Shown here: in pieces, positions 5,179 to 48,024 of the stretch | How the letters are laid out: each line of letters opens with the position of its first letter | Position numbering within the stretch: position 1 is the first letter of the stretch | Source of the DNA: Gammaproteobacteria bacterium | GTDB taxonomy: Bacteria; Pseudomonadota; Gammaproteobacteria; SZUA-140 | Direction: 5' to 3' | NCBI GenBank assembly: GCA_016712635.1 | Contig: JADJQS010000008.1 | Location: 139,268-203,267, forward strand | DNA length: 64,000 bases | Notes under the pieces: generated by a model | What the model was told of the DNA's origin: nothing | Database searches by the model: none | Seen by the model: only the letters and a program-made list of their open reading frames with translations | Program-made: the position numbers and the translations under genes

Positions 5179-5253
5179 TGGGGTGTCGCCAAGCGGTAAG
5201 GCACGGGATTTTGATTCCCGCATACCCAGGTTCGAATCCTGGCACCCCAGCCA
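5179..5253 (+). tRNA. tRNA-Gln (anticodon UUG)
   Basis: TGGGGTGTCGCCAAGCGGTAAGGCACGGGATTTTGATTCCCGCATACCCAGGTTCGAATCCTGGCACCCCAGCCA is near-identical in architecture to E. coli tRNA-Gln. It has a 7-bp acceptor stem and ends in CCA. Confidence 0.9.
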
Positions 5254-8973: not shown

Positions 8974-9050
8974 GGCTATGTAGCTCAGTCGGTTAGAGCA
9001 CAGCATTCATAATGCTGGTGTCCCTGGTTCGAGTCCAGGCATAGCCACCA
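8974..9050 (+). tRNA. tRNA-Met (elongator, anticodon CAU)
   Basis: GGCTATGTAGCTCAGTCGGTTAGAGCACAGCATTCATAATGCTG...GCATAGCCACCA closely matches E. coli metT-type tRNA. Confidence 0.9.
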
Positions 9051-9722: not shown

Positions 9723-10745
9723 ATGAAGAAACTAACTTCTCTGTCCTTGGCGCCAGCCGCGATTTTCATCAGCGGCGCTGCCATGGCGGCACCGATCGGT
9801 GGCTACGACGCGTGGACGGTTAACGCGGGTACCATCACGGCGACCTGCCCGGCGGGCCATACGTGTTCCAACCTGGATGCCACCGGCAACGGCATTCTGC
9901 AGCAAAAGATGGTGGACAACGCTGACACCACCGTTTCCTACTTCCGTACCATCGTAGTCGACGAAGGCACCACCGCGACGGACCTGGCCTCGGTACAGGC
10001 CCTGGGTTTCCGCGTTGAAGGCCAGATCGGCATCGACGGCGGCGGCGGCAACAACTACACCAACCGCAGCGTGATCAAGGGCGGCTCGATCCTGGGCAAC
10101 GACCAGATGTCGACCATGGCCGAAGTCAACAGCGGCGCCCTGCAGGCGGGCAGCCTGGCCCCTGTCGTATTGGACCAAGAGCAGGGCCTGGGCTCGACTG
10201 CCCGTCGCATGGACTGGCATTTCCATGAGAACGGCGTGCACTACCTCGAGTTGAACGCCTACTCCTCCGGCGGTGTTGCCGGCGGCGGCACGGGCAACGA
10301 GGGCGCCATCACGGTGCGTCGTTCAGGCAACCTGACCCTCGGCGGCACCCTGACGCTGGATCCGAGCATCACTGAAGGTTCCCAGACCTTGGCCTATGCG
10401 GCCGGCAACTCCGTCACGGCGGTGTGGCTGACGCAGGCGGCCTCGGGCGTCGGTTCCTTCACGAACCGGACCCTCGGTCTGCAGCGCTATACCGTGGTGA
10501 CGGGCGCAGGCGGTCCCAAGACCAACGTCGGCGGCACCTCGATCGACGCGAGCAACAGGGATGGCGCGGGTAACTTCGCGATCACCCTGAATGCCACCGG
10601 CTCCGAGATCAGCGGTACGCAGTTCGGCTGGAACAATGCCCTGTTCGGTAACACGCCCCAGGAGTACTTCACCAACTCGCTCAACAGCGCGTTGGCAGCT
10701 CCCCCGGCGCCGGGTACCTACACCAATGACTTCGTCATTCCCTAA
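9723..10745 (+). CDS. secreted Gly/Thr/Asn-rich protein, paralog A (Sec signal MKKLTSLSLAPAAIFISGAAMA)
   Basis: Good RBS (GGGAGAGAcaaATG). N-terminal conserved module W-V-N-AGTIT-C...C-LDATG-GILQQ...VSYFRTIVVDEG is shared with the downstream paralog. No recognisable family. Confidence 0.7.
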   Translation: MKKLTSLSLAPAAIFISGAAMAAPIGGYDAWTVNAGTITATCPAGHTCSNLDATGNGILQQKMVDNADTTVSYFRTIVVDEGTTATDLASVQALGFRVEGQIGIDGGGGNNYTNRSVIKGGSILGNDQMSTMAEVNSGALQAGSLAPVVLDQEQGLGSTARRMDWHFHENGVHYLELNAYSSGGVAGGGTGNEGAITVRRSGNLTLGGTLTLDPSITEGSQTLAYAAGNSVTAVWLTQAASGVGSFTNRTLGLQRYTVVTGAGGPKTNVGGTSIDASNRDGAGNFAITLNATGSEISGTQFGWNNALFGNTPQEYFTNSLNSALAAPPAPGTYTNDFVIP

Positions 10746-10769: not shown

Positions 10770-11699
10770 ATGAATCGCAAATATATAGCTTTGGCGATGG
10801 CGTCCGCGGGAGGGTTGCTGATTTCGGGTTCAGCCCTGGCGGGTTCCGCCGCAGCACACAATGCACCATTGAGCTTTGACCAGTACTCGGTCACCAACGG
10901 CACCATCACCGATACCTCGGTTGAGTGCGCCTCCACGTGGACCTGCGTGTCCCTGGATGCCACCAGCCCCGGTTTGCTGATGCAGCAGGTCACCGATCCG
11001 GGTAACGGCGTCTCCTTCATCCGCACCATCGTGGTGGAAGAGAACGCGAACGGCACGACGGCTGCGGGCCTGACGTTCTGGCAGGAAGCCCAGACGTATG
11101 CCAGCGGTGTCCTCAACAACAACATTGCCTTGACACAGGGAATTGTGGATGGCGGCATGGACTTCCGCGTCGACATTTACGAGCAGGCCTTCCGTACGGA
11201 CGGGGATATCTCCATCCCGACCAGCGGCGGCGGCGGCGCGGAGATGTACATGAACCAGACGATCGCCACGGCCGGTCAGACCTTCCAGCAGGATGGCGTG
11301 AACGGCAACGCGCGTCAGCGCATCGACCAGGTCCAGGGCACCAACCCGGGCAAGTTCACCTATGCCTCCATCGACGGCGCGGCGTTCATGCCGACCGTGG
11401 GCGGTACGCTGGGTGGCACGGTGATGCCGGCGCTGGCCTATGCCTCGACGGACGGCATCAGCGTGGTGTGGATCGGTGCGGATCAGCCGGGTAACTACGC
11501 GGCCTCGCTGCGTCAGTTCGGTTACCAGGAATTCCGCAACTGGGGTTCGATCGCGGTGACCGCTCCGGGCACCAACGTCGCGGCCGGCTCCTCGAGCTAC
11601 ATGGCGCAGGGCCCTCTGGGCCAGTTCACCGCCAACGGCTCGTGGGACTGGGATGCGGCGCTGTGGGATCTGGGCGCTGCGCCCTCCGGCCCGCCCTGA
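10770..11699 (+). CDS. secreted Gly/Thr-rich protein, paralog B (signal MNRKYIALAMASAGGLLISGSALA)
   Basis: RBS AGGAGAG. Shares YSVTNGTITDT...SLDATSPGLLMQQVTDPGNGVSFIRTIVVEE and a ...SVVWIG segment with paralog A. Confidence 0.7.
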   Translation: MNRKYIALAMASAGGLLISGSALAGSAAAHNAPLSFDQYSVTNGTITDTSVECASTWTCVSLDATSPGLLMQQVTDPGNGVSFIRTIVVEENANGTTAAGLTFWQEAQTYASGVLNNNIALTQGIVDGGMDFRVDIYEQAFRTDGDISIPTSGGGGAEMYMNQTIATAGQTFQQDGVNGNARQRIDQVQGTNPGKFTYASIDGAAFMPTVGGTLGGTVMPALAYASTDGISVVWIGADQPGNYAASLRQFGYQEFRNWGSIAVTAPGTNVAAGSSSYMAQGPLGQFTANGSWDWDAALWDLGAAPSGPP

Positions 11700-17728: not shown

Positions 17729-19126
17729 CTAGTCGATACGACCGTCGCGCGCCGCCTTCAGCACCAGCGCGTCGAACTCCTCCGCCGACAGCAGCCCGCG
17801 TTCCGCCACCAACTCGCGCACCGGGCGTCCGCTCTGCTCCGAGGCCTTGGCCACCTCGGCCGCAGCCGCGTAGCCGATGCGCGTATTGAGCAGCGTGGCG
17901 AGGCCGACGCTGGCGTGGAGGAATTCCCGGCAGCGCTCGCGGTCCACGCGCAATCCCTTCAGGTTGCGTTCCGTCGCGGCTCTGATCGCGTTCGTCAGCC
18001 AGTCCATCGCGTCGAACAGGGCCGAGCCCAGCGCCGGCATCATCACGTTCAGTTCGAGCTGGCCGGCCTGCGTCATCGCCGCCACCGCGGCATCCTGGCC
18101 CAGGACCTGGTAGCACACCTGGTTCAGCATCTCGAACATCACCGGATTGACCTTGCCGGGCATGATGCTCGAGCCGGGCTGCACCGCCGGCAGCACGATC
18201 TCGCCCAGGCCGGTGCGCGGGCCGGAGGCGAGCAGGCGCATGTCGTTGGCGATGCGCGTCAGCTCCAGCGCGAGGTCACGGATGGCGGAGGACAGCTGCT
18301 GCACGTCGTACATCGACTGCATCTGCGCGGCGAGGTCGGCTGCCGGGCGGATGGGCTCGCCGGTCAGGCGCGCCAGTTCGGCGGCGACGTTGGCGACATA
18401 ACCGGGCGCGGTATTGAGGCCGGTGCCGGCGGCGCTGCCCCCGAGACCGATCTCGCACAGCAGCGGGCGCACGGCCTCGATCCGGCCTGCGCAGCGGCGC
18501 AGCGTCCACGCGTAGGCGGCGAATTCGCGTCCCAGCGTGGTCGGTACCGCATCCTGCAGGTGGGTGCGGCCGCTCTTGACGGTATCTCCTTCGCGCGCCG
18601 CAATTGCAGCATATTCGTCCGCCATCGCGCGCACCGCCGCGCACAGGCGCGGCAGCTTGGCGAGCGCCGCGAGACGGATGGCGGTCGGGATGGTGTCATT
18701 GGTGCTCTGGCCCATGTTGACGTGGTCGTTGGGGTGCACCGGCCGGTATTCGCCGCGCTTGCCGCCGAGCGCGACGCTGGCCAGGTTCGCGATCACCTCG
18801 TTGCTGTTCATGTTGTGGCTGGTGCCGGCGCCGGCCTGGAAGCGGTCGACGACGAACTGGTCGATAAACTCGCCGGCCAGGATGCGGTCGGCGGCGGTGA
18901 TGATCGCCGCGGCGAGTGTGTCGTCGAGCCAGCCCGCCTGCCGGTTGGCGGCCGCCGCGGCGCGCTTGATGCGTACGTGGGCGAGCACGAAGTCGCGGTC
19001 CGGGCGCCTGCCGCTGATCGGAAAGTTGTCCACCGCACGCTGGGTCTGGATGCCGTACCAGGCGCCGTCGTGGACCCGGATCTCGCCCAGGCTGTCTTTT
19101 TCGTTGCGAAACGTGCCGCTGCTCAT
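17729..19126 (-). CDS. aspA: aspartate ammonia-lyase (class II fumarase/aspartase family)
   Basis: GSSIMPGKVNPVMFEMLNQVCYQVLG signature. C-terminal ...ERGLLSAEEFDAL and the QTQRA N-terminal motif fit AspA better than FumC. The ORF-track start at 19306 is probably an over-extension; the start is taken at MSSGTFRNEKDS. Confidence 0.8.
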   Translation of the reverse strand: MSSGTFRNEKDSLGEIRVHDGAWYGIQTQRAVDNFPISGRRPDRDFVLAHVRIKRAAAAANRQAGWLDDTLAAAIITAADRILAGEFIDQFVVDRFQAGAGTSHNMNSNEVIANLASVALGGKRGEYRPVHPNDHVNMGQSTNDTIPTAIRLAALAKLPRLCAAVRAMADEYAAIAAREGDTVKSGRTHLQDAVPTTLGREFAAYAWTLRRCAGRIEAVRPLLCEIGLGGSAAGTGLNTAPGYVANVAAELARLTGEPIRPAADLAAQMQSMYDVQQLSSAIRDLALELTRIANDMRLLASGPRTGLGEIVLPAVQPGSSIMPGKVNPVMFEMLNQVCYQVLGQDAAVAAMTQAGQLELNVMMPALGSALFDAMDWLTNAIRAATERNLKGLRVDRERCREFLHASVGLATLLNTRIGYAAAAEVAKASEQSGRPVRELVAERGLLSAEEFDALVLKAARDGRID

Positions 19127-19277
19127 GCTGTCGCCTTCTGCCGGATGATATGGGAATGAGACGGGCGCGGACGCTGGCCGCGCCGCCGCGTATACTGGCG
19201 GTGCAATGGGGCAGATATTACGTGACGGCCGCATGCATGAAAAGCCGTTTCCCGCGCGGCGCGCGCAGGTTCCCGCC

Positions 19278-19562
19278 ATGACACAGACGACCATGGTTCC
19301 ATGCATCCGCTGCCAGGTTTCCGGGCGCGTGCAGGGCGTGTACTACCGCGCCGCGACCCGGCGCCAGGCGCAGGCGCTCGGACTGACCGGCTGGGTGCGC
19401 AACCTGCCCGACGGCCGCGTCGAGCTGGTCGCGATGGGGGATGAGCGCCGCTTGCACGAGCTGCGCGACTGGCTGTGGCAGGGCCCGCCGCGCGCCGAGG
19501 TCGTCGCCGTGGAGTGCGCGCGCGCGGAGCATCCGCCGCTGCCGCAGTTCGAGGTCAGGTGA
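19278..19562 (+). CDS. acyP: acylphosphatase
   Basis: VQGVYYRAATRRQAQALGLTGWVRNLPDGRVELVAMG matches the acylphosphatase signature. Confidence 0.85.
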   Translation: MTQTTMVPCIRCQVSGRVQGVYYRAATRRQAQALGLTGWVRNLPDGRVELVAMGDERRLHELRDWLWQGPPRAEVVAVECARAEHPPLPQFEVR

Positions 19563-19678: not shown

Positions 19679-22114
19679 TTACTTGATGCACACCGTGCGT
19701 ACGGTGTGCAGGTCGGTGATGCCCTGGAGCACCTTCTCGATACCGTCCTGCTTCAGGGTGCGCATTCCCTCCTGCAGGCCCAGCGCCAGCATCTCCGAGA
19801 CCTGGGCGTGATCCAGGATCTGCTTCTTGAGGGCGTTGGTCGCGTAGAGCAGCTCGTGGATGCCGAGCCGGCCTTTGTACCCTGTGTCGTCGCAGGTCTT
19901 GCAGCCCTTGGGGTGGTAAAGCGTGAACTTGCCGTTCGTGGTGAACTTCTCCCGCCATTCCTTCAGCACAGTGTCGTATAACGCCTGTTTCTCGTCCTCC
20001 GGCGCTGTGGGCGCAACCAGCTCGTAGCAGTATTCCGCGACCATTTCCCGGATTTCCTCCTCCGTCGGCTCGAACGGTACCTTGCAGGCGACGCACAGGC
20101 GCTTGGCGAGGCGCTGGGCCAGGATGCCGATCAGGGCGTCGGCGAAGTTGAACGGATCCATGCCCATGTCGAGCAGGCGGGTGACTGTCTCCGGCGCCGT
20201 GTTGGTGTGCAGGGTGGACAGCACCAGGTGGCCGGTGAGCGAGGCCTCGATGCCGATGCTGGTGGTCTCCTTGTCGCGCATCTCGCCGACCATGATGATG
20301 TCGGGGTCGGCGCGCAGGAAGGAGCGCATCGCCGCCGCGAAGTTGAAGCCGATCTTCGGCTTCACTTCCACCTGGCGCAGGCCGCGCTGGGTGATTTCGA
20401 CCGGGTCCTCCGCGGTCCAGATCTTCACGTCGGGTGTATTCAGGTATCCGAGCACGGAGTGCAGCGTGGTCGTCTTGCCCGAGCCCGTCGGGCCGCACAC
20501 GAAGATCAGGCCGTAGGGTTTGGAGATCATGCGCTTCAGGGCGGTCATGTTGCGCTCCGACAGCCCGATCTTCTCCAGCGGCACCGGCTCGCCGCTCGCC
20601 AGGATGCGCATGACCACGTCTTCCATGTCGGCCGCCGTCGGGATGGTGGCGACGCGCAGCTCGATCTTCAGCATGCCGAATTTCTTGAAGTCGATCTTGC
20701 CGTCCTGCGGCTTGCGTTTCTCCGAGATGTCGAGTTCGGCCATGATCTTGATGCGCGCGACCACCGCGCTGCGCATCTTGGCCGGGATCTCGTAGTAGTT
20801 CTTCAGGTCGCCGTCCTTGCGGATGCGCACGATGGTCTTCTTCTTGCCCGGATAGGGTTCGATGTGGATATCGGATGCGCCCTGCTGGTAGGCATCGATG
20901 ATGATCTTGTTGACCAGCTTGACGATGACGTTGTCCTGCACCGAGGTCTCGCCGTATTCCTCCTCCTTGCCGTCCTTTTCGGTGTCGTCATACCCGAGGG
21001 TGAAGTCGTCGAGCGACTCGCTTTCGATGGCGGACATCGAGTACAGCGTCGTGATGGTGTGCTCGATCTCCTCCTTCGAGGCCATCACCGGCTCGACATA
21101 CAGGTTGGAATGGAAGCGCACGGCGTCGAGCGCCTCGCGGTCCATCGGGTTTTCCAGCGCGATGACCAGCTTGTTGTTGAAGTAGTGCACCGGCACGATG
21201 CCGTGCTTGCGCACCAGGTCCTCGGGGATGTACTTGATCGCCTCCGGGTTGATCTTGAACTTGCCCAGGTCGATGAACGGGATGCCGAGCTTTTCGGACA
21301 GGGCCTGCATGATCTCGCCCATGTTGATGGTGCCGAGCTCCATCAGCACCTGGCCGATCTGCATGTTCTTGCCCTGGGTGCGGTACAGCTTCTGCGCCTC
21401 CAGGGCGTCGTCGAGATTCTGCTGCGTGATGAACTTTTCCTTCACCAGGATTTCGCCGAGGCGTAGCTTGGGGGCCGCCTTGTGGTGGCGGAGCACCTCC
21501 TCCAGCGCCTCGGTGGTCTCGACGTTCTTCAGCGCGGCGGCGTGCACCTCGGCCGAATCATCCACTAACGGCACCTCCACCGCCTCCGCCACCTCCGCCG
21601 CGGCGTCGGCCGGCGCCTCCGCGGGCGTCAGGCGATACTGCTCCGTCGAGGTGTGCGGCACGAAGGCGTGGCAATAGCGCTGGTTCGGCAGCATGGGGTA
21701 CAGGTAGAGCCCGCCGGCATCGCTGCGGTATCCGAGGGTGACGTCCGACAGCGTGCTGCCATCCTTCAGCTCGATCCGGTACTGGAGGATGCGCGAGCCC
21801 TGGTTGGCGGGTTGCGCGGCCTTTTCCGGCGCGAGCTGCTCCGGCGCCCACGCGCGCGGTTGCGGGAGCTGGAAATACCTGAACCTGGTGAAGGCGATGT
21901 CCTGGGTCGCCCCGCCGTCGACGGCGACGGAGATGGATTTTTCGTCGCGCTGGAACTTCTGCAAAGTCCCGGAGAGGGTGGTGCCGTCATGCAGGACCAG
22001 CTCGATCTGCTCCCCGGCCTTGAGGGCATTCTTGATATCGATCTCCGCCAGCGGTGGCGGCAGGATCGGAAGGATATGGCTGGGCTTGAGCTTCTGTGCC
22101 GGGGACGATGACAT
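19679..22114 (-). CDS. GspE/PilB/MshE-family secretion ATPase with c-di-GMP-binding MshEN-type N-domain and an additional roughly 220-aa N-terminal extension
   Basis: C-terminal Walker A (GPTGSGKTT), Asp/His boxes and tetracysteine region (CVACK...CKTCDDTGYKGR). The T2SSE_N region has two MshEN-type motifs (RLGEILVKEKFITQQNLDDALEAQ; QIGQVLMELGTINMGEIMQALSEK). The extra N-terminus carries two related modules (IELVLHDGTTLSG...; IELKDGSTLSD...). The true start is uncertain. Confidence 0.8.
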   Translation of the reverse strand: MSSSPAQKLKPSHILPILPPPLAEIDIKNALKAGEQIELVLHDGTTLSGTLQKFQRDEKSISVAVDGGATQDIAFTRFRYFQLPQPRAWAPEQLAPEKAAQPANQGSRILQYRIELKDGSTLSDVTLGYRSDAGGLYLYPMLPNQRYCHAFVPHTSTEQYRLTPAEAPADAAAEVAEAVEVPLVDDSAEVHAAALKNVETTEALEEVLRHHKAAPKLRLGEILVKEKFITQQNLDDALEAQKLYRTQGKNMQIGQVLMELGTINMGEIMQALSEKLGIPFIDLGKFKINPEAIKYIPEDLVRKHGIVPVHYFNNKLVIALENPMDREALDAVRFHSNLYVEPVMASKEEIEHTITTLYSMSAIESESLDDFTLGYDDTEKDGKEEEYGETSVQDNVIVKLVNKIIIDAYQQGASDIHIEPYPGKKKTIVRIRKDGDLKNYYEIPAKMRSAVVARIKIMAELDISEKRKPQDGKIDFKKFGMLKIELRVATIPTAADMEDVVMRILASGEPVPLEKIGLSERNMTALKRMISKPYGLIFVCGPTGSGKTTTLHSVLGYLNTPDVKIWTAEDPVEITQRGLRQVEVKPKIGFNFAAAMRSFLRADPDIIMVGEMRDKETTSIGIEASLTGHLVLSTLHTNTAPETVTRLLDMGMDPFNFADALIGILAQRLAKRLCVACKVPFEPTEEEIREMVAEYCYELVAPTAPEDEKQALYDTVLKEWREKFTTNGKFTLYHPKGCKTCDDTGYKGRLGIHELLYATNALKKQILDHAQVSEMLALGLQEGMRTLKQDGIEKVLQGITDLHTVRTVCIK

Positions 22115-22260: not shown

Positions 22261-23124
22261 TTATCGGACAAAGCGCAAACGCATTGAGAGGTCGGTCGCA
22301 AAAACATCCTTGGTCAGTGCGCCGATGGAGATGCGATCCACCCCGGTCAGGGCGATCGCGCGGATATTGTCGAGCGTAATGCCGCCCGAGGCCTCGAGCA
22401 GGGCCTGTCCCTGGTGGCGGTCAACGGCCTCGCGCAGGGTATCGAGGTCGAAATTGTCCAGCAGCACGATGTCGGCCCCGGCCGCGATGGCCTCGGCCGC
22501 GCCGTCGAGGTCCTCCACCTCGGTCTCGACCGGCAGGCCGGTGCCGAGCGCGCGGGCGGCCTCGATCGCCCGCGTGATCGAACCGCTGGTCGCGATGTGG
22601 TTCTCCTTGATCAGGATGCCGTCGTAGAGCCCGAGGCGATGGTTGGCGCCGCCGCCGCAGCGCACGGCGTATTTCTGCGCGCGGCGCAGCCCCGGCAGTG
22701 TCTTGCGCGTGTCGAGCAGGACCACCGGAAGGTCCCCTATGCGCGTGCGGTAGGCCGCGGTCCGGGTCGCCGTGCCGGACAGCGTCTGCAGGAAGTTGAG
22801 CGCGGTGCGCTCGCCGGTGAGCAGCGTGCGCGCCGGCCCGTGCAGGCGGCACAGCGTCTGTCCCGCGGAGATCGCTGCGCCGTCCGCCAGCGTCCACTCC
22901 ACCGTCACACCGCCGCCGAGCTGTGCGAATACCGCCTCGAACCAGGCCTGGCCGCACAGCACGGCCGACTCGCGGCTGATCACCGCGCCCTCGGCGCGCA
23001 ACTCCGCCGGCACCAGGCGCGCCGTCACGTCGCCGCCGCCGACGTCCTCGGCCAGCGCGCGCGCGACATCCTCGCGCACGATGGAAGCCTCCGGCCCCGC
23101 CATTGTCCGGGAGTCTGTCTTCAT
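22261..23124 (-). CDS. nadC: nicotinate-nucleotide pyrophosphorylase (carboxylating)
   Basis: LLTGERTALNFLQTLSGTAT...LLDTRKTLPGLR...ENHI matches the QPRTase family. Confidence 0.9.
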   Translation of the reverse strand: MKTDSRTMAGPEASIVREDVARALAEDVGGGDVTARLVPAELRAEGAVISRESAVLCGQAWFEAVFAQLGGGVTVEWTLADGAAISAGQTLCRLHGPARTLLTGERTALNFLQTLSGTATRTAAYRTRIGDLPVVLLDTRKTLPGLRRAQKYAVRCGGGANHRLGLYDGILIKENHIATSGSITRAIEAARALGTGLPVETEVEDLDGAAEAIAAGADIVLLDNFDLDTLREAVDRHQGQALLEASGGITLDNIRAIALTGVDRISIGALTKDVFATDLSMRLRFVR

Positions 23125-24465: not shown

Positions 24466-27069
<2,604 letters not shown>

Positions 27070-31891: not shown

Positions 31892-32246
31892 TGCCTTGCC
31901 TCCATCGTGCGCCTGTGTGAATCAGGCCATCATCGTGCCGGATCGGCACCCATGCCATCGGGAAAACAACGAACAGTCGTGGAGAGGGGCGGGGTAGAGC
32001 CGGAGTGTCCATCGCCCCCATGTTAGCGGCCGCTGCGATGGGTTCAGCAGCGCTGTTTGCCGATATTCCGGGCCCGCCCAAAAGGCTCTTGCAGATGATA
32101 AGCATTGTTGCGTGGATCCCAAATCGGAGAATCCGGACAGGGGAATGTGCTTTCGCTATAATCCGACGAGCCTTGGCCGGAACATTCAAGGCGTCAGTAC
32201 CCGTTTTTCTTCTGCGTTGATCAATCAAATCGAACCCGGGATCCAG

Positions 32247-32588
32247 ATGAGCACCTTGCCCAAATGTCCGCAATGCAGTTCCGAATACACCTATGAAGAC
32301 GCGGGCATGTATATCTGCCCCGAATGCGCCCATGAATGGTCGCCGCAGGCCGCGGCGGAGGCGGTGGATGAGAAGCGCGTCGTGCGCGATGCCTACGGCA
32401 ACGAACTGAAGGACGGCGACTCGGTGACGGTGATCAAGGACCTGAAGGTGAAGGGATCCTCCGCCGTGGTCAAGGTCGGCACCAAGGTGAAGAACATCCG
32501 CCTCGTCGACGGCGACCACGACATCGACTGCCGCATCGACGGCGTCGGCGCGATGGGCCTGAAGTCGGAGTTCGTGAAGAAGGCCTAG
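32247..32588 (+). CDS. phnA: PhnA/YjdC zinc-ribbon protein
   Basis: [31 protein letters not shown]...[42 protein letters not shown] is the canonical PhnA. The ORF-track N-terminal extension is ignored. Confidence 0.88.
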
Positions 32589-33002: not shown

Positions 33003-34295
33003 CTACTTGAACTTCGCCAGCTTGTCGCGCCAGCCCGGGAAGAGCATGTCGGCGTCTTTCGGGAACGAGTAGAAGGCGCGCGCGAATTCGCGGTGCTCCT
33101 TGGCGTACTCGACCGGGTTGGCGCCGGCCTTCCAGCACTCATAGGACTGCCGCAGCGAGATGGCGCCGGCGGCCGGGCTGTCGATGTGGCCGTAGGAGCC
33201 GCCGCCGGCGGTGTTGACCAGGTTGCCGTGGCCGAGGTTCTGGAAGAAGCCCGGCAGGCGCAGCGCGTTCATGCCGCCGGAGATGATCGGCGTCGTGGGT
33301 TTCATTCCGTACCACTTCTGCAGGTACACCGGGCCGCGGCTCTCGTCGCGCTCGATCATGTAGGCAATGATCTTGTCGTCGCCTTCGCCTTCCATCTTGC
33401 CGTAGCCCATGGTGCCGACGTGGATGCCGGAGGCGCCCTGCAGACGGCTCATCTTTGCCAGTACGAACGCGGTGTAGCCGCGCTTGGACGAGGGCGAGGT
33501 GACGGCGCCGTGGCCGGCGCGGTGGTAGTGCAGGTACTGGTCGGGGTACTGGCGACGCGCTGTCGTCACCATGCCGGGGCCGCCGACATAGCCGTCCACC
33601 AGGAAGGCCAGCTTGTCCGCGTCGGAGCCGAAGGTCTCCAGCGCGAAGTCGGCGCGGGCGCACATCTCGTAGTGGTCGTCGGCCGTGATGTTGAGGGAGA
33701 ACAGCTTGGCCTCGCCGGTCTTGTCCTGCGCACGCTTCAGCGAATCGTAGACCAGCGGCAGCGTCTTCTTCAGAGGAGAGAACACCTGGTTGCCCTGCGG
33801 CTCGTCGTTCTTGATGAAGTCGCCGCCGAGCCAGAACTCGTACGCAGCCTTCGCGAAGGGCTCGGGACGCAGGCCCAGCTTGGGCTTGATGATGGTGCCG
33901 GAGATGTAACCGCCGTCCTTGATCGGGCGGCCGAGGATGCGCCACAGGTCGGAGATGTCCTTGGACGGGCCGTCGAACAGCTGGATCGCGCGCGGCGGCA
34001 CGTGGAAGTCGATCATTCTGCCGTATTCGATGTCGCCCATGCCCTGGTTGTTGCCGATGGTCAGGGTCAGGAAGGACACCATCATCATGCGGCCGTCGGT
34101 GACGTTGCGGTCGAACAGGTCCAGCGGATAGGCGATGCGCATGTCCTCGTTCTGCTCGTCGATGTAGTAGACGAGCGCGTCGACGCCCTTGGTGAAATCG
34201 TCGGTCGTGCTGACTTCCACGTTGGTGCCGGTGGACGATTCGGCGGCGAAATGCGCGGCGGCCTCCAGATAGCCATGGCCGGCCTTCGGCTTCAT
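33003..34295 (-). CDS. cbbM: ribulose-1,5-bisphosphate carboxylase/oxygenase, form II large subunit
   Basis: Near-collinear with Rhodospirillum rubrum CbbM ([28 protein letters not shown]...[14 protein letters not shown]...[13 protein letters not shown]...). The conserved N-terminus continues upstream but out of frame (see finding). Confidence 0.93.
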
Positions 34296-34659: not shown

Positions 34660-34984
34660 CAGTCTGCCTGAATGCCCGCAGTGCAATTCCGGATACTCCT
34701 AATTAAGACTCGGGCAAATACATCTGCCCAGAATGTGCCCATGAATGTGGCCGCGGGGGGCGGTGAATGACAAGGGCGTGCGCGTGCCGCGGCAACAGCT
34801 GAAGGACGGCGACTCGGTGACAGTGATCAAGGTCCTGAAGGTGAAGGGCACGTCCACCGTGGACAAGGTCGGCACCAGGGAGAAGAACATCCGCCTCGTC
34901 GACGGCGATCACGACATCGACTGCCGCATCGACGGCATCGGCGGTATGGGCCTGATGTCGGAGTTCGTGAAGAAGGCCTGGCCG
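34660..34984 (+). pseudogene. decayed duplicate of phnA (internal stops/deletion in the 5' half; 3' 190 bp about 90% identical to intact phnA)
   Basis: Translation gives ...[95 protein letters not shown]. The nucleotide stretch was compared by eye with 32400-32588. Confidence 0.75.
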
Positions 34985-34985
34985 T

Positions 34986-35087
34986 AATATATTTGGGGTC
35001 AGAGTAAAAACCCCTTCCGGAGCTGCGTGGCTGAAGCCAGGCGCCGGGCTGGTGGGTGGCGAAGGTTTTTACTCTGACCCCAAATAT
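34986..35087. repeat. MITE-like hairpin element: perfect 24-bp terminal inverted repeats (ATATTTGGGGTCAGAGTAAAAACC ... GGTTTTTACTCTGACCCCAAATAT) around a 51-bp core
   Basis: Read directly from the sequence. It sits exactly at the junction between the phnA pseudogene and the dsrE-like gene. Confidence 0.8.
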
Positions 35088-47674: not shown

Positions 47675-47964
47675 TCAGGGCTTGGGGAGCAGGAACTCCA
47701 CGCCGATCCGGTAGTGCTCGTTGGCCTTGCGCACCCAGCGTACCTTGGCGTCGCGCGGCTCCGCCCAGTCGTCGTATCCTTCCAGGCGCAGCGTCTGGTT
47801 CAGGCTGAGCGGTTCCTCCAGCGACAGGCCGGCGCCGTTTCCGCTGACGTCGAGCAGGGTGCCCTTCTTGCCGCCGCCCGCCGCGTTCGCGGTGGTGTAG
47901 GTGATGTCCATGTTGATGCTGATGCGGAGATTCTTCCGCAGCTCGATGTGTTCGATCTGCACGG
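47675..47964 (-). CDS. PilZ-domain protein (c-di-GMP receptor)
   Basis: RxxxR (LRKNLR) and DxSxxG (DVSGNGAG) motifs. GTG start with a GGGGGAAG SD was chosen. The ORF-track extension to 48016 would run into a REP palindrome. Confidence 0.6.
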
Positions 47965-47999
47965 CACTTCCCCCCTGGCGGACTATATAGATCTGACTT

Positions 48000-48024
48000 G
48001 GGGCAGATTTATACATCTGTCCCC
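48000..48024. repeat. REP-like palindrome GGGGCAGATTTATACATCTGTCCCC (degenerate)
   Basis: Read from the sequence. It lies upstream of the pilZ-domain gene. Confidence 0.75.

Follow-up and report, generated by a model that had tools for sequence, protein, structure and literature searches.

Motor ATPases of the PilB type have usually been studied alongside the partners encoded in their operons, and with one regulatory N-domain. In GspE and PilB the N1 domain serves for docking of a partner. Binding of c-di-GMP (a cyclic dimer of guanosine monophosphate) was described for the MshEN motif RLGxx(L/V/I)(L/V/I)xxG(L/V/I)(L/V/I)xxxxLxxxLxxQ, which occurs twice with a 5-residue spacer and for which a relaxed search pattern exists too (PMC5013675, Wang et al. 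2016). PilB of Myxococcus xanthus also binds c-di-GMP (PMC11656802). Tandem MshEN_N units (PMC5013675) and triple GSPII domains (PMC11731258) are known, the latter, according to the PilF paper, reported in traffic ATPases only for Deinococcus-Thermus (PMC11731258). In Acinetobacter, TfpB acts as an accessory extension motor; of 16 species that have TfpB, 15 possess PilB as well (PMC8213720). Here we analyzed a solitary motor ATPase gene (19679..22114, minus strand) in a 64-kb stretch of the gammaproteobacterial contig JADJQS010000008.1, referred to as the window. The gene encodes a protein of 811 amino acids (aa), in which tandem DUF6982-like barrels, a degenerate linker, an MshEN region and a PilB-class ATPase follow each other. 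It belongs to a family that is catalogued, yet entirely uncharacterised. With guarded confidence, we favor the interpretation that it is a hexameric PilB-class motor, which would work in trans with a type IV filament platform whose genes lie elsewhere, and would be regulated by c-di-GMP through MshEN_N, the tandem barrels being a family-specific interaction or assembly module.

Results

The original prediction, which was made from the letters of this DNA, had described a stand-alone secretion ATPase, gated by c-di-GMP and equipped with a novel sensory N-terminus. The analysis indeed recovered an ATPase of the PilB/GspE class that stands alone, carries an MshE-type motif pair and has an additional, conserved N-terminal region composed of two related modules. 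Its open reading frame (ORF) is complete and begins with an ATG, 7 nt upstream of which an AGGA Shine-Dalgarno-like site is located. A whole-protein search yielded more than 110 proteins of ~785-830 aa that cover the entire query with 46-96% identity, and all matches belonged to uncultured Gammaproteobacteria or Chromatiales. The N-terminal start position and the LPxPP lead-in are common to more than 100 full-length homologues. To quantify selection, the ratio of nonsynonymous to synonymous substitutions (dN/dS) was computed against three close relatives. Values of 0.13-0.19 were obtained for the barrels (residues 31-165), comparable to the MshEN region (residues 216-390, 0.08-0.2) and the ATPase (0.05-0.11), and residues 1-30 gave 0.06-0.23. 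The N-terminal region is thus under purifying selection, because dN/dS amounts to 0.06-0.23 over residues 1-165. As judged from these sequence comparisons, the full 811-aa ORF is translated.

Three NCBI entries of close relatives (P0010-P0012) are shorter, with products of 624-665 aa from the Prokaryotic Genome Annotation Pipeline (PGAP) that are named 'TadA'. The DNA upstream of P0010 and P0011 on their own contigs encodes residues 1-165 with 86% aa identity, and the short products of P0010-P0012 are, by this comparison, start-codon miscalls. Their NCBI starts lie 140-190 codons late and the label reads 'Flp pilus assembly complex ATPase component TadA' (L008 2981-5398, L009 3105-5519); late starts and 'TadA' names are a systematic misannotation of the ATPase family. 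The PGAP products would favor an alternative in which the N-terminal 215 residues are untranslated and the true start is an internal Met or Val. Against it stand the coding DNA upstream of P0010 and P0011, the low dN/dS in close pairs, the common start of more than 100 homologues, the confident fold of the N-terminal domain (see below) and the AGGA site ahead of the ATG. This alternative is extremely improbable and effectively refuted, and so is the concern, raised with the original prediction, that the real start lies downstream of the extension.

The motor core was analyzed by profile searches and structure prediction (all features of the gene given in the following lie on the minus strand). 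The N2 and C-terminal ATPase domains comprise residues 393-805 (19700..20938; Pfam T2SSE PF00437, E 7.8e-117). They contain the Walker A motif GPTGSGKT (20471-20494, residues 541-548), the Asp box with an atypical Walker B, DPDIIMVGEMRD (residues 603-614), and the His box GHLVLSTLHTN (residues 628-638). In 88 family sequences G541-T543, G544, K547, D603-D605, G610-D614, G628-H629 and T634-N638 are invariant. The same applies to C674, C677, C738 and C741 of a tetracysteine zinc motif, CVAC ... CKTC (19892..20095, residues 674-741). In the window protein ~60 residues separate the two Cys pairs, and they harbor a helical insertion (helices 685-696 and 706-724, predicted local distance difference test (pLDDT) >90 in the full-length model) that is family-specific in comparison with HofB. 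Residues 276-361 (21032..21289) correspond to the MshEN_C or T2SSE_N1 subdomain (Pfam PF05157, MshEN/T2SSE_N, E 4.2e-19) and can be aligned with Geobacter and Myxococcus PilB in their N-terminal regions.

By sequence, the closest solved proteins are Myxococcus PilB, Thermus PilF and Geobacter PilB (E 1e-123 to 1e-128). The full-length AlphaFold model has a pLDDT of 83.5. With Foldseek its core was superimposed on Geobacter PilB and Thermus PilF with template modelling (TM) scores of 0.84-0.88, a root mean square deviation of 3.4-4.0 A and 41-43% identity. Identity to GspE/EpsE structures was 36-40%, and the ATPase-core entries among them reached a TM score of 0.77; the GspE-GspL structure has the top Foldseek E-value, owing to the inclusion of N1. 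The best NCBIfam model is PilB (TIGR02538), which the query matches with 557.4 bits. The designation as a secretion ATPase was overstated, as the protein is nearer to type IV pilus extension motors (PilB) than to GspE of the type II secretion system (T2SS).

To characterize the N-terminal extension, residues 1-172 were modelled with a 64-sequence alignment. An all-beta structure with two five-stranded barrels was predicted (pLDDT 89, predicted TM score (pTM) 0.84). Barrel 1 (residues 35-88, 21851..22012) is Sm/SH3-like and reaches a pLDDT of 95-98 in the AlphaFold2 (AF2) model, and barrel 2 (residues 110-164, 21623..21787) bears the most conserved patch, TLGxRxDxxGLxLYP, with G124, G128, G135 and F151. 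The proline-rich lead-in ILPILPPPL (residues 10-30, 22025..22087; family consensus LPxPP, P20 nearly invariant) was modelled confidently against the barrels (pLDDT 85-90). When family alignments of residues 30-92 and 105-165 were compared profile against profile with hhalign, a probability of 91.6% and an E-value of 8.4e-7 over 55 columns were obtained. The two similar segments pointed out in the original prediction are thus related, and the two barrels are, at the level of sequence profiles, homologous, the product of an internal duplication.

The region had been taken for novel and of unknown fold. It corresponds to a catalogued, though uncharacterised, Pfam domain, DUF6982 (PF22478), and its architecture is that of a family of 217 clusters at 50% identity. 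DUF6982 was matched by 48 of 64 family N-termini at E<=1, and P0034, P0046, P0016, P0039 and P0041 pass its gathering score with 27-37 bits and align end-to-end with the query N-terminus. The query alone stays below the gathering score (17.1 bits versus 24.5, E 0.006, profile positions 6-131 of 134). For DUF6982 no function is described, and it was not mentioned in the literature searched. Sub-threshold matches among the 64 N-termini were LSM (19), the RimP C-terminal SH3 domain (13), SM-ATX (9), Hfq (7) and ROF (7). Foldseek searches against the PDB returned weak matches only, to tandem Tudor domains (53BP1, FMRP, SETDB1) and the LSm domain of Edc3 (E ~2e-3, TM 0.2-0.3). As modelled, the N-terminal domain is a tandem small beta-barrel of the Sm/SH3/Tudor class. 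Barrels of this type more often mediate protein or nucleic-acid contacts or oligomerisation. From the predicted fold, an interaction or assembly module is the most likely role of the barrels, while a small-molecule sensor is less likely; no sign of ligand sensing was found that would justify the term 'sensory'. PilZ domains were considered as well and rejected, since the query gave no PilZ match at E<=1, PilZ is absent from the 25 families most often matched by the 64 relatives (a list that reaches down to single-member families), and no PilZ structure was among the 50 best Foldseek matches listed.

The predicted c-di-GMP module follows the linker. It consists of the MshEN motifs I, RLGEILVKEKFITQQNLDDALEAQ (21392..21463, residues 218-241), and II, QIGQVLMELGTINMGEIMQALSEK (21290..21361, residues 252-275), with residues 242-251 as spacer. 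The NCBIfam model NF053729 ('c-di-GMP_motif, MshE-related') matches residues 218-274 with 52.7 bits (E 2.7e-14, cut-off 38). The two 24-residue motifs of the original prediction are therefore present, both deviating from the consensus. Four helices were modelled (219-225, 231-246, 253-259 and 265-276). Among 88 family members G220, L223, L238 and Q241 of motif I and G254 and L272 of motif II are invariant, and K275 is nearly so; Leu-6 and Leu-21 of both motifs are hence invariant across the family. G220 and G254 are the equivalents of G11 and G40 of Vibrio cholerae MshE (VcMshE), where substitution abolishes binding, and the equivalent of VcMshE Q32 is also among the invariant residues (PMC5013675). 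Comparable deviations from the consensus occur in proven binders: PilF domains with K, L or P at motif position 1 still bind with 6-460 nM (PMC11731258), Myxococcus and Geobacter PilB have N at position 10 of motif I, and the spacer of Geobacter PilB has 7-8 residues. The deviations are not read as loss of function, because the key Gly, Leu and Gln residues are kept and such binders exist. Binding of c-di-GMP by residues 218-275 is, on this sequence basis, likely. Gating by c-di-GMP is likely too, but the description as 'c-di-GMP-gated' was overstated, as the motifs are off consensus and the window clade lost one of the two modules found in most relatives.

This loss became apparent from the family alignment. 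Most relatives possess a second MshEN-type pair (IGExLV...Q / PLGEYL...Q) between the barrels and the pair at residues 218-275, resulting in two tandem MshEN_N modules. NF053729 scores 89-103 bits in two-module relatives, with 2-3 matched stretches, versus 45-56 bits in single-module members. In the window protein an Ala/Glu/Pro-rich linker is found at this position (residues 165-215, 21470..21622). It is disordered in the model (pLDDT 32-40 over residues 170-189) and evolves almost neutrally, with a dN/dS of 0.34-1.4 against the three close relatives. DUF4388 matches in some relatives coincide in part with the MshEN-type helices or are placed directly upstream of them; since no stretch passes alone, they were not considered further.

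To estimate family size, 1.84 billion representative proteins were searched exhaustively with an N-terminal profile. Clustered at 50% identity, 725 matches were obtained at E<=1e-3 and 217 at E<=1e-10. Among the best 150 profile matches, many have full family length (~770-830 aa), and the 13 shorter matches that were read are all contig-end fragments running on into MshEN motifs. Four giant proteins (2,663-3,614 aa) among the matches were rejected as false positives; they show many repeated stretches, and the three that were scanned were repetitive immunoglobulin- or leucine-rich-repeat-type proteins. From these sequences the barrel domain appears specific to the ATPase family. A word-indexed search with residues 1-215 alone gave no match, a false negative of the prefilter that is contradicted by the whole-protein and exhaustive profile searches. 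A locus search with 10 N-terminal sequences led to seven contigs of metagenome-assembled genomes and no cultured organism. GCA_050182465.1, GCA_011322815.1, GCA_054013535.1 and GCA_050295955.1 are examples of metagenome-assembled genomes with the ATPase gene. The architecture 'unknown domain-MshEN-T2SSE' is not among the rows seen of the table of Wang et al. 2016 (PMC5013675). Barrels combined with one or two MshEN_N modules, N1 and a PilB-class motor with enlarged zinc module are an architecture not described in the literature searched.

In nine distinct loci spanning the diversity of the family (the window and eight others), the ATPase gene is solitary among unrelated housekeeping genes. In the window, nadC (22261..23124, minus strand) is located immediately upstream with a gap of 146 nt, and a convergent acylphosphatase gene (19278..19562, plus strand; 94 aa, start ~19278) lies on the other side. 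The neighbors were thus correctly named in the original prediction, as was the absence of a pilus or T2SS operon around the gene. Next, on the minus strand, is an aspartate ammonia-lyase-like gene of the class II fumarase/aspartase family (17729..19126, 465 aa), which forms a block with nadC and the ATPase gene. The longest ORFs of the aspartase-like gene (17729-19306, minus) and the acylphosphatase gene (19206-19562, plus) overlap on opposite strands; with the starts seen in relatives (~19126 and ~19278) this overlap disappears. The block nadC - ATPase - (acylphosphatase) - aspartase-like gene was also found in three further lineages, with identities as low as 46%. Adjacency to nadC was found in L001, L002-L004 and L005, and is absent in five of the nine loci. 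In Escherichia coli K-12, ppdD-hofB-hofC (encoding a pilin, a PilB homologue and a PilC homologue) are located directly downstream of nadC on the same strand. Because the ATPase gene sits downstream of nadC at the place of ppdD-hofB-hofC, this suggests descent from an ancestral pilB of the nadC locus, which concerns ancestry only and has no direct bearing on function. At one distant locus (L007, 1-5105), a PilS-like kinase, a response regulator, a GGDEF-EAL protein and a homologue of FimW, a c-di-GMP-binding pilus regulator, are encoded 5-10 kb upstream of the ATPase; these pilus-regulator neighbors were not seen in the other loci and may be coincidence.

Upstream of the ATPase gene no riboswitch or other RNA element was found in an Rfam scan of the window, which returned only two tRNAs (5179-5250 and 8974-9047, plus strand). 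Likewise, no sigma-70-like promoter was detected near the gene, and a lone terminator-like site inside the ORF lies on the opposite strand and is within chance expectation. A single-domain PilZ gene (47675..48016, minus strand; 113 aa; Pfam PilZ E 1.6e-8) harbors the motifs RxxxR (RKNLR) and DxSxxG (DVSGNG). Its presence had been predicted correctly, while the end formerly given (47964) would yield 290 nt and is out of frame, the ORF ending at 48016. This unlinked gene shows that c-di-GMP effectors are, as far as sequence tells, encoded in the organism. The window further contains hemA, lolB, ispE, prs, pth, ychF, clpB, aconitase, hrpB, aspS, nadA, ruvCB and tolQR, a form II RuBisCO gene and genes for DsrE-like proteins; from 48 kb onward, genes were identified solely by reading translations. 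By their predicted products, these are housekeeping and sulfur- and carbon-autotrophy genes.

Some observations concern other parts of the window. Between 26000 and 36000, just after clpB, the G+C content drops to 53-60% versus 63-68% in neighboring 2-kb bins, and few confident ORFs are present between 27.1 and 30.8 kb. In a 96%-identical relative (L001), the clpB-marC interval holds other genes (RelE/helix-turn-helix, DUF5615/DUF433 and DUF5677), so that this region looks like a variable or acquired island. In the window clpB is intact (24466-27069, 867 aa); in L001 (4887-7679) it is called as pieces of 629 aa and 61 aa with DUF5615/DUF433 genes between them, and is disrupted or differently assembled there. 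The form II RuBisCO gene (33003-34295, minus strand; NF010002, 837 bits) starts at profile position 30, and ~29 N-terminal residues are missing or a non-standard start is used. It is flanked by a complete yjdM/phnA (32112-32588, plus strand) and an incomplete further copy of the YjdM C-terminal domain (34745-34987, plus strand), which suggests rearrangement or insertion at this locus. Finally, two adjacent, mutually similar genes (9723-10745 and 10770-11699, both plus strand) encode predicted secreted proteins, rich in Gly, Thr and Ala and with signal-peptide-like N-termini, neither of which gave a Pfam or NCBIfam match.

Discussion

According to the interpretation we favor, the solitary gene would give rise to a hexameric motor of the type IV pilus extension type, which would act in trans on a type IV filament machine encoded elsewhere, with the platform protein PilC and PilM or GspL-like partners. 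ATP hydrolysis would drive the platform protein as in PilB. Binding of c-di-GMP in the four-helix MshEN_N module (residues 218-275) would tune activity or engagement of the motor; in most family members the second, upstream module would bind c-di-GMP too, a copy that the window lineage has lost. The barrels (residues ~10-165) could serve to recruit a family-specific partner, or to stabilise and cap the hexamer. The protein is read as a motor because catalytic and zinc residues are invariant, the core has the PilB fold and the N1 docking subdomain is well conserved. The ATPase may be the only extension motor of the cell, or it may be specialised and work next to another one, like TfpB in Acinetobacter.

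Several observations weigh against this interpretation. Neither the window nor the 8-10 kb next to the gene in the eight other loci contain genes for pilus, T2SS or platform components, and because of this no machine can be named. The full-length model has a pTM of 0.56 and provides no reliable inter-domain geometry, and the role of the barrels is read from their fold class, the PDB matches being weak. The cut-offs of all three relevant equivalog models were missed by the query and six diverse relatives: the PilB model TIGR02538 (675.65) with 542-568 bits, the GspE model TIGR02533 (630.25) with 478.2 bits for the query and 463-485 bits for the relatives, and the TfpB model NF053534 (850) with 400-427 bits, the query reaching 427.1. 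By these scores the ATPase family is a distinct branch nearest to PilB that lies within no named equivalog. With respect to c-di-GMP control, neither window motif fits even the relaxed pattern of PMC5013675: in motif I the turn position 10 is occupied by K, in motif II position 1 by Q (R38 in MshE) and the hydrophobic position 11 by T, and the spacer of 10 residues is twice as long as the five of MshE. In addition, the linker is, as the alignment indicates, the degenerate remnant of a first MshEN_N module lost in the window clade. Given the motif deviations and the lost module, c-di-GMP control could be weakened in the window protein.

It was therefore considered that the MshEN module of the window clade no longer binds c-di-GMP and that any regulation proceeds via the barrels or partners only. 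The substitutions in both motifs, a spacer of 10 instead of 5-6 residues, the decay of the first module to a nearly neutral linker and the lower NF053729 scores of single-module members all point in this direction. The score of the query nevertheless still exceeds the curated cut-off, both binding-critical Gly as well as the Leu and Gln/Lys positions are invariant or, for K275, nearly so, dN/dS over residues 216-390 is low, and neither a non-Arg residue at position 1 (nanomolar binding in PilF, PMC11731258) nor a longer spacer (Geobacter PilB) is foreign to related motors; we regard loss of binding as rather unlikely. Alternatively, the ATPase could be the one and only PilB of the organism, a type IVa extension motor at the ancestral nadC locus from which pilA, pilC and pilD have moved away and to which an N-terminal domain was added. 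PilB gives the highest model score and matches best in structure, nadC directly precedes the gene, as in the E. coli nadC-ppdD-hofB-hofC arrangement, in lineages down to 46% identity, and Pseudomonas fluorescens A506 was reported to have only a non-canonical extension motor (PMC8213720). The members tested stay 110-135 bits under the PilB equivalog cut-off, however, the zinc module carries its family-specific insertion, nadC is not adjacent in five of nine loci and pilC/pilD never are, so that a sole PilB appears unlikely.

A more radical possibility is that a PilB-derived motor was repurposed as a c-di-GMP receptor or signalling ATPase that no longer powers a filament, with the Sm-like barrels as new output or substrate contact. 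The consistently solitary position among housekeeping genes and the family-specific additions at both ends of the protein would agree with this, and PilB of M. xanthus was reported to have, beyond pilus assembly, a signalling role in the control of exopolysaccharide (PMC5544727). Yet the N1 docking subdomain and the motor residues are under the same strict conservation as those of working motors, and no alternative partner is conserved in the neighborhood. A PilB-class ATPase working without a platform protein was not found in the literature searched, and we know of none, which makes repurposing improbable. Classical members of the Sm fold such as Hfq and LSm build six- or seven-membered rings. 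Sm-like barrels might thus assemble on top of the hexamer as a ring or collar, or bind nucleic acid or peptide, in a PilB-derived machine with a job beyond conventional pilus extension whose state is set by c-di-GMP occupancy of one or two MshEN_N modules; we consider this a speculative and doubtful scenario. A type II secretion ATPase, i.e. a GspE paralogue serving a T2SS encoded elsewhere, would explain the 478 bits with the GspE model and the top E-value of the GspE-GspL structure. It is very unlikely, given that PilB is consistently nearer in score, identity and TM and that the N-domains of GspE/XpsE are typically devoid of the c-di-GMP motif (PMC5013675), which is kept in the window protein.

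Taken together, the predicted PilB-class motor stands for a sizeable family, widespread across environments, of uncultured sulfur-cycling Gammaproteobacteria (at least 217 clusters at 50% identity). In this family, one or two direct c-di-GMP modules and a tandem beta-barrel domain not described before are joined to the motor, and the gene stands alone in nine loci. The motor and the c-di-GMP module are conventional in themselves, and no sign of a new mechanism was seen. Should the protein act as an additional, messenger-controlled extension motor, the concept of two motors derived from Acinetobacter TfpB would extend to another lineage and DUF6982 would gain its first functional context. The loss of a module in the window clade moreover offers a ready-made natural comparison for the effect of the number of c-di-GMP modules on control.

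Comparison with described motors

With PilB of Myxococcus (3JC8) and Geobacter (5TSG/5ZFR) the window protein has the succession of MshEN (N1), N2, C-terminal ATPase domain and tetracysteine zinc motif in common, and, as in PilB, position 10 of its motif I is not Gly. Unlike PilB, it is ~215-240 aa longer at the N-terminus due to the tandem barrels and carries the helical insertion between the Cys pairs; the family scores below the PilB equivalog cut-off, and neither pilC/pilD nor other pil genes lie beside the ATPase gene in any of the nine loci. Similar to V. cholerae MshE/MshEN (5HTL), two 24-residue motifs arranged as a four-helix bundle precede N1, and the key Gly, Leu and Gln residues are kept. 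It differs from MshE in the spacer (10 versus 5 residues) and in motif II, with Q at its start and K at its end, and the MshE gene belongs to the msh operon whereas the window gene is solitary.

Acinetobacter baylyi TfpB is likewise a phylogenetically distinct PilB-like ATPase and works alongside or instead of PilB, a possible functional analogy (PMC8213720). With 427 bits versus a cut-off of 850 the window protein belongs to a different subfamily, and in the literature searched a DUF6982 domain was not described for TfpB, which was compared by description only. The PF22478 (DUF6982) profile of 134 positions is covered almost completely by the N-terminal domains of homologues, with up to 37 bits. 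With Sm, LSm and Hfq proteins and the tandem Tudor domains of 53BP1 and FMRP these N-terminal domains share five-stranded barrels, and the pattern hxhxLxDGxxhxGxLxxF resembles the Sm1 motif; none of these matches is significant (TM 0.2-0.3), and the modelled barrels are likened by fold class.

Thermus thermophilus PilF, the best PDB match for the c-di-GMP-module region, possesses three consecutive GSPII/MshEN domains, and relatives of the window protein similarly stack more than one c-di-GMP module in front of the motor. In the window family, in contrast to PilF, only the four-helix MshEN_N half is duplicated, and the hosts are Gammaproteobacteria rather than Deinococcus-Thermus; PilF is without a beta-barrel domain, whereas the window protein has the barrels and has lost its first MshEN_N copy. 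E. coli HofB occupies the same position and orientation relative to nadC and is 32% identical over the motor. HofB, however, is a protein of 461 aa without c-di-GMP motif pair or barrels and has pilin and platform genes alongside, whereas the window ATPase comprises 811 aa and is encoded alone.

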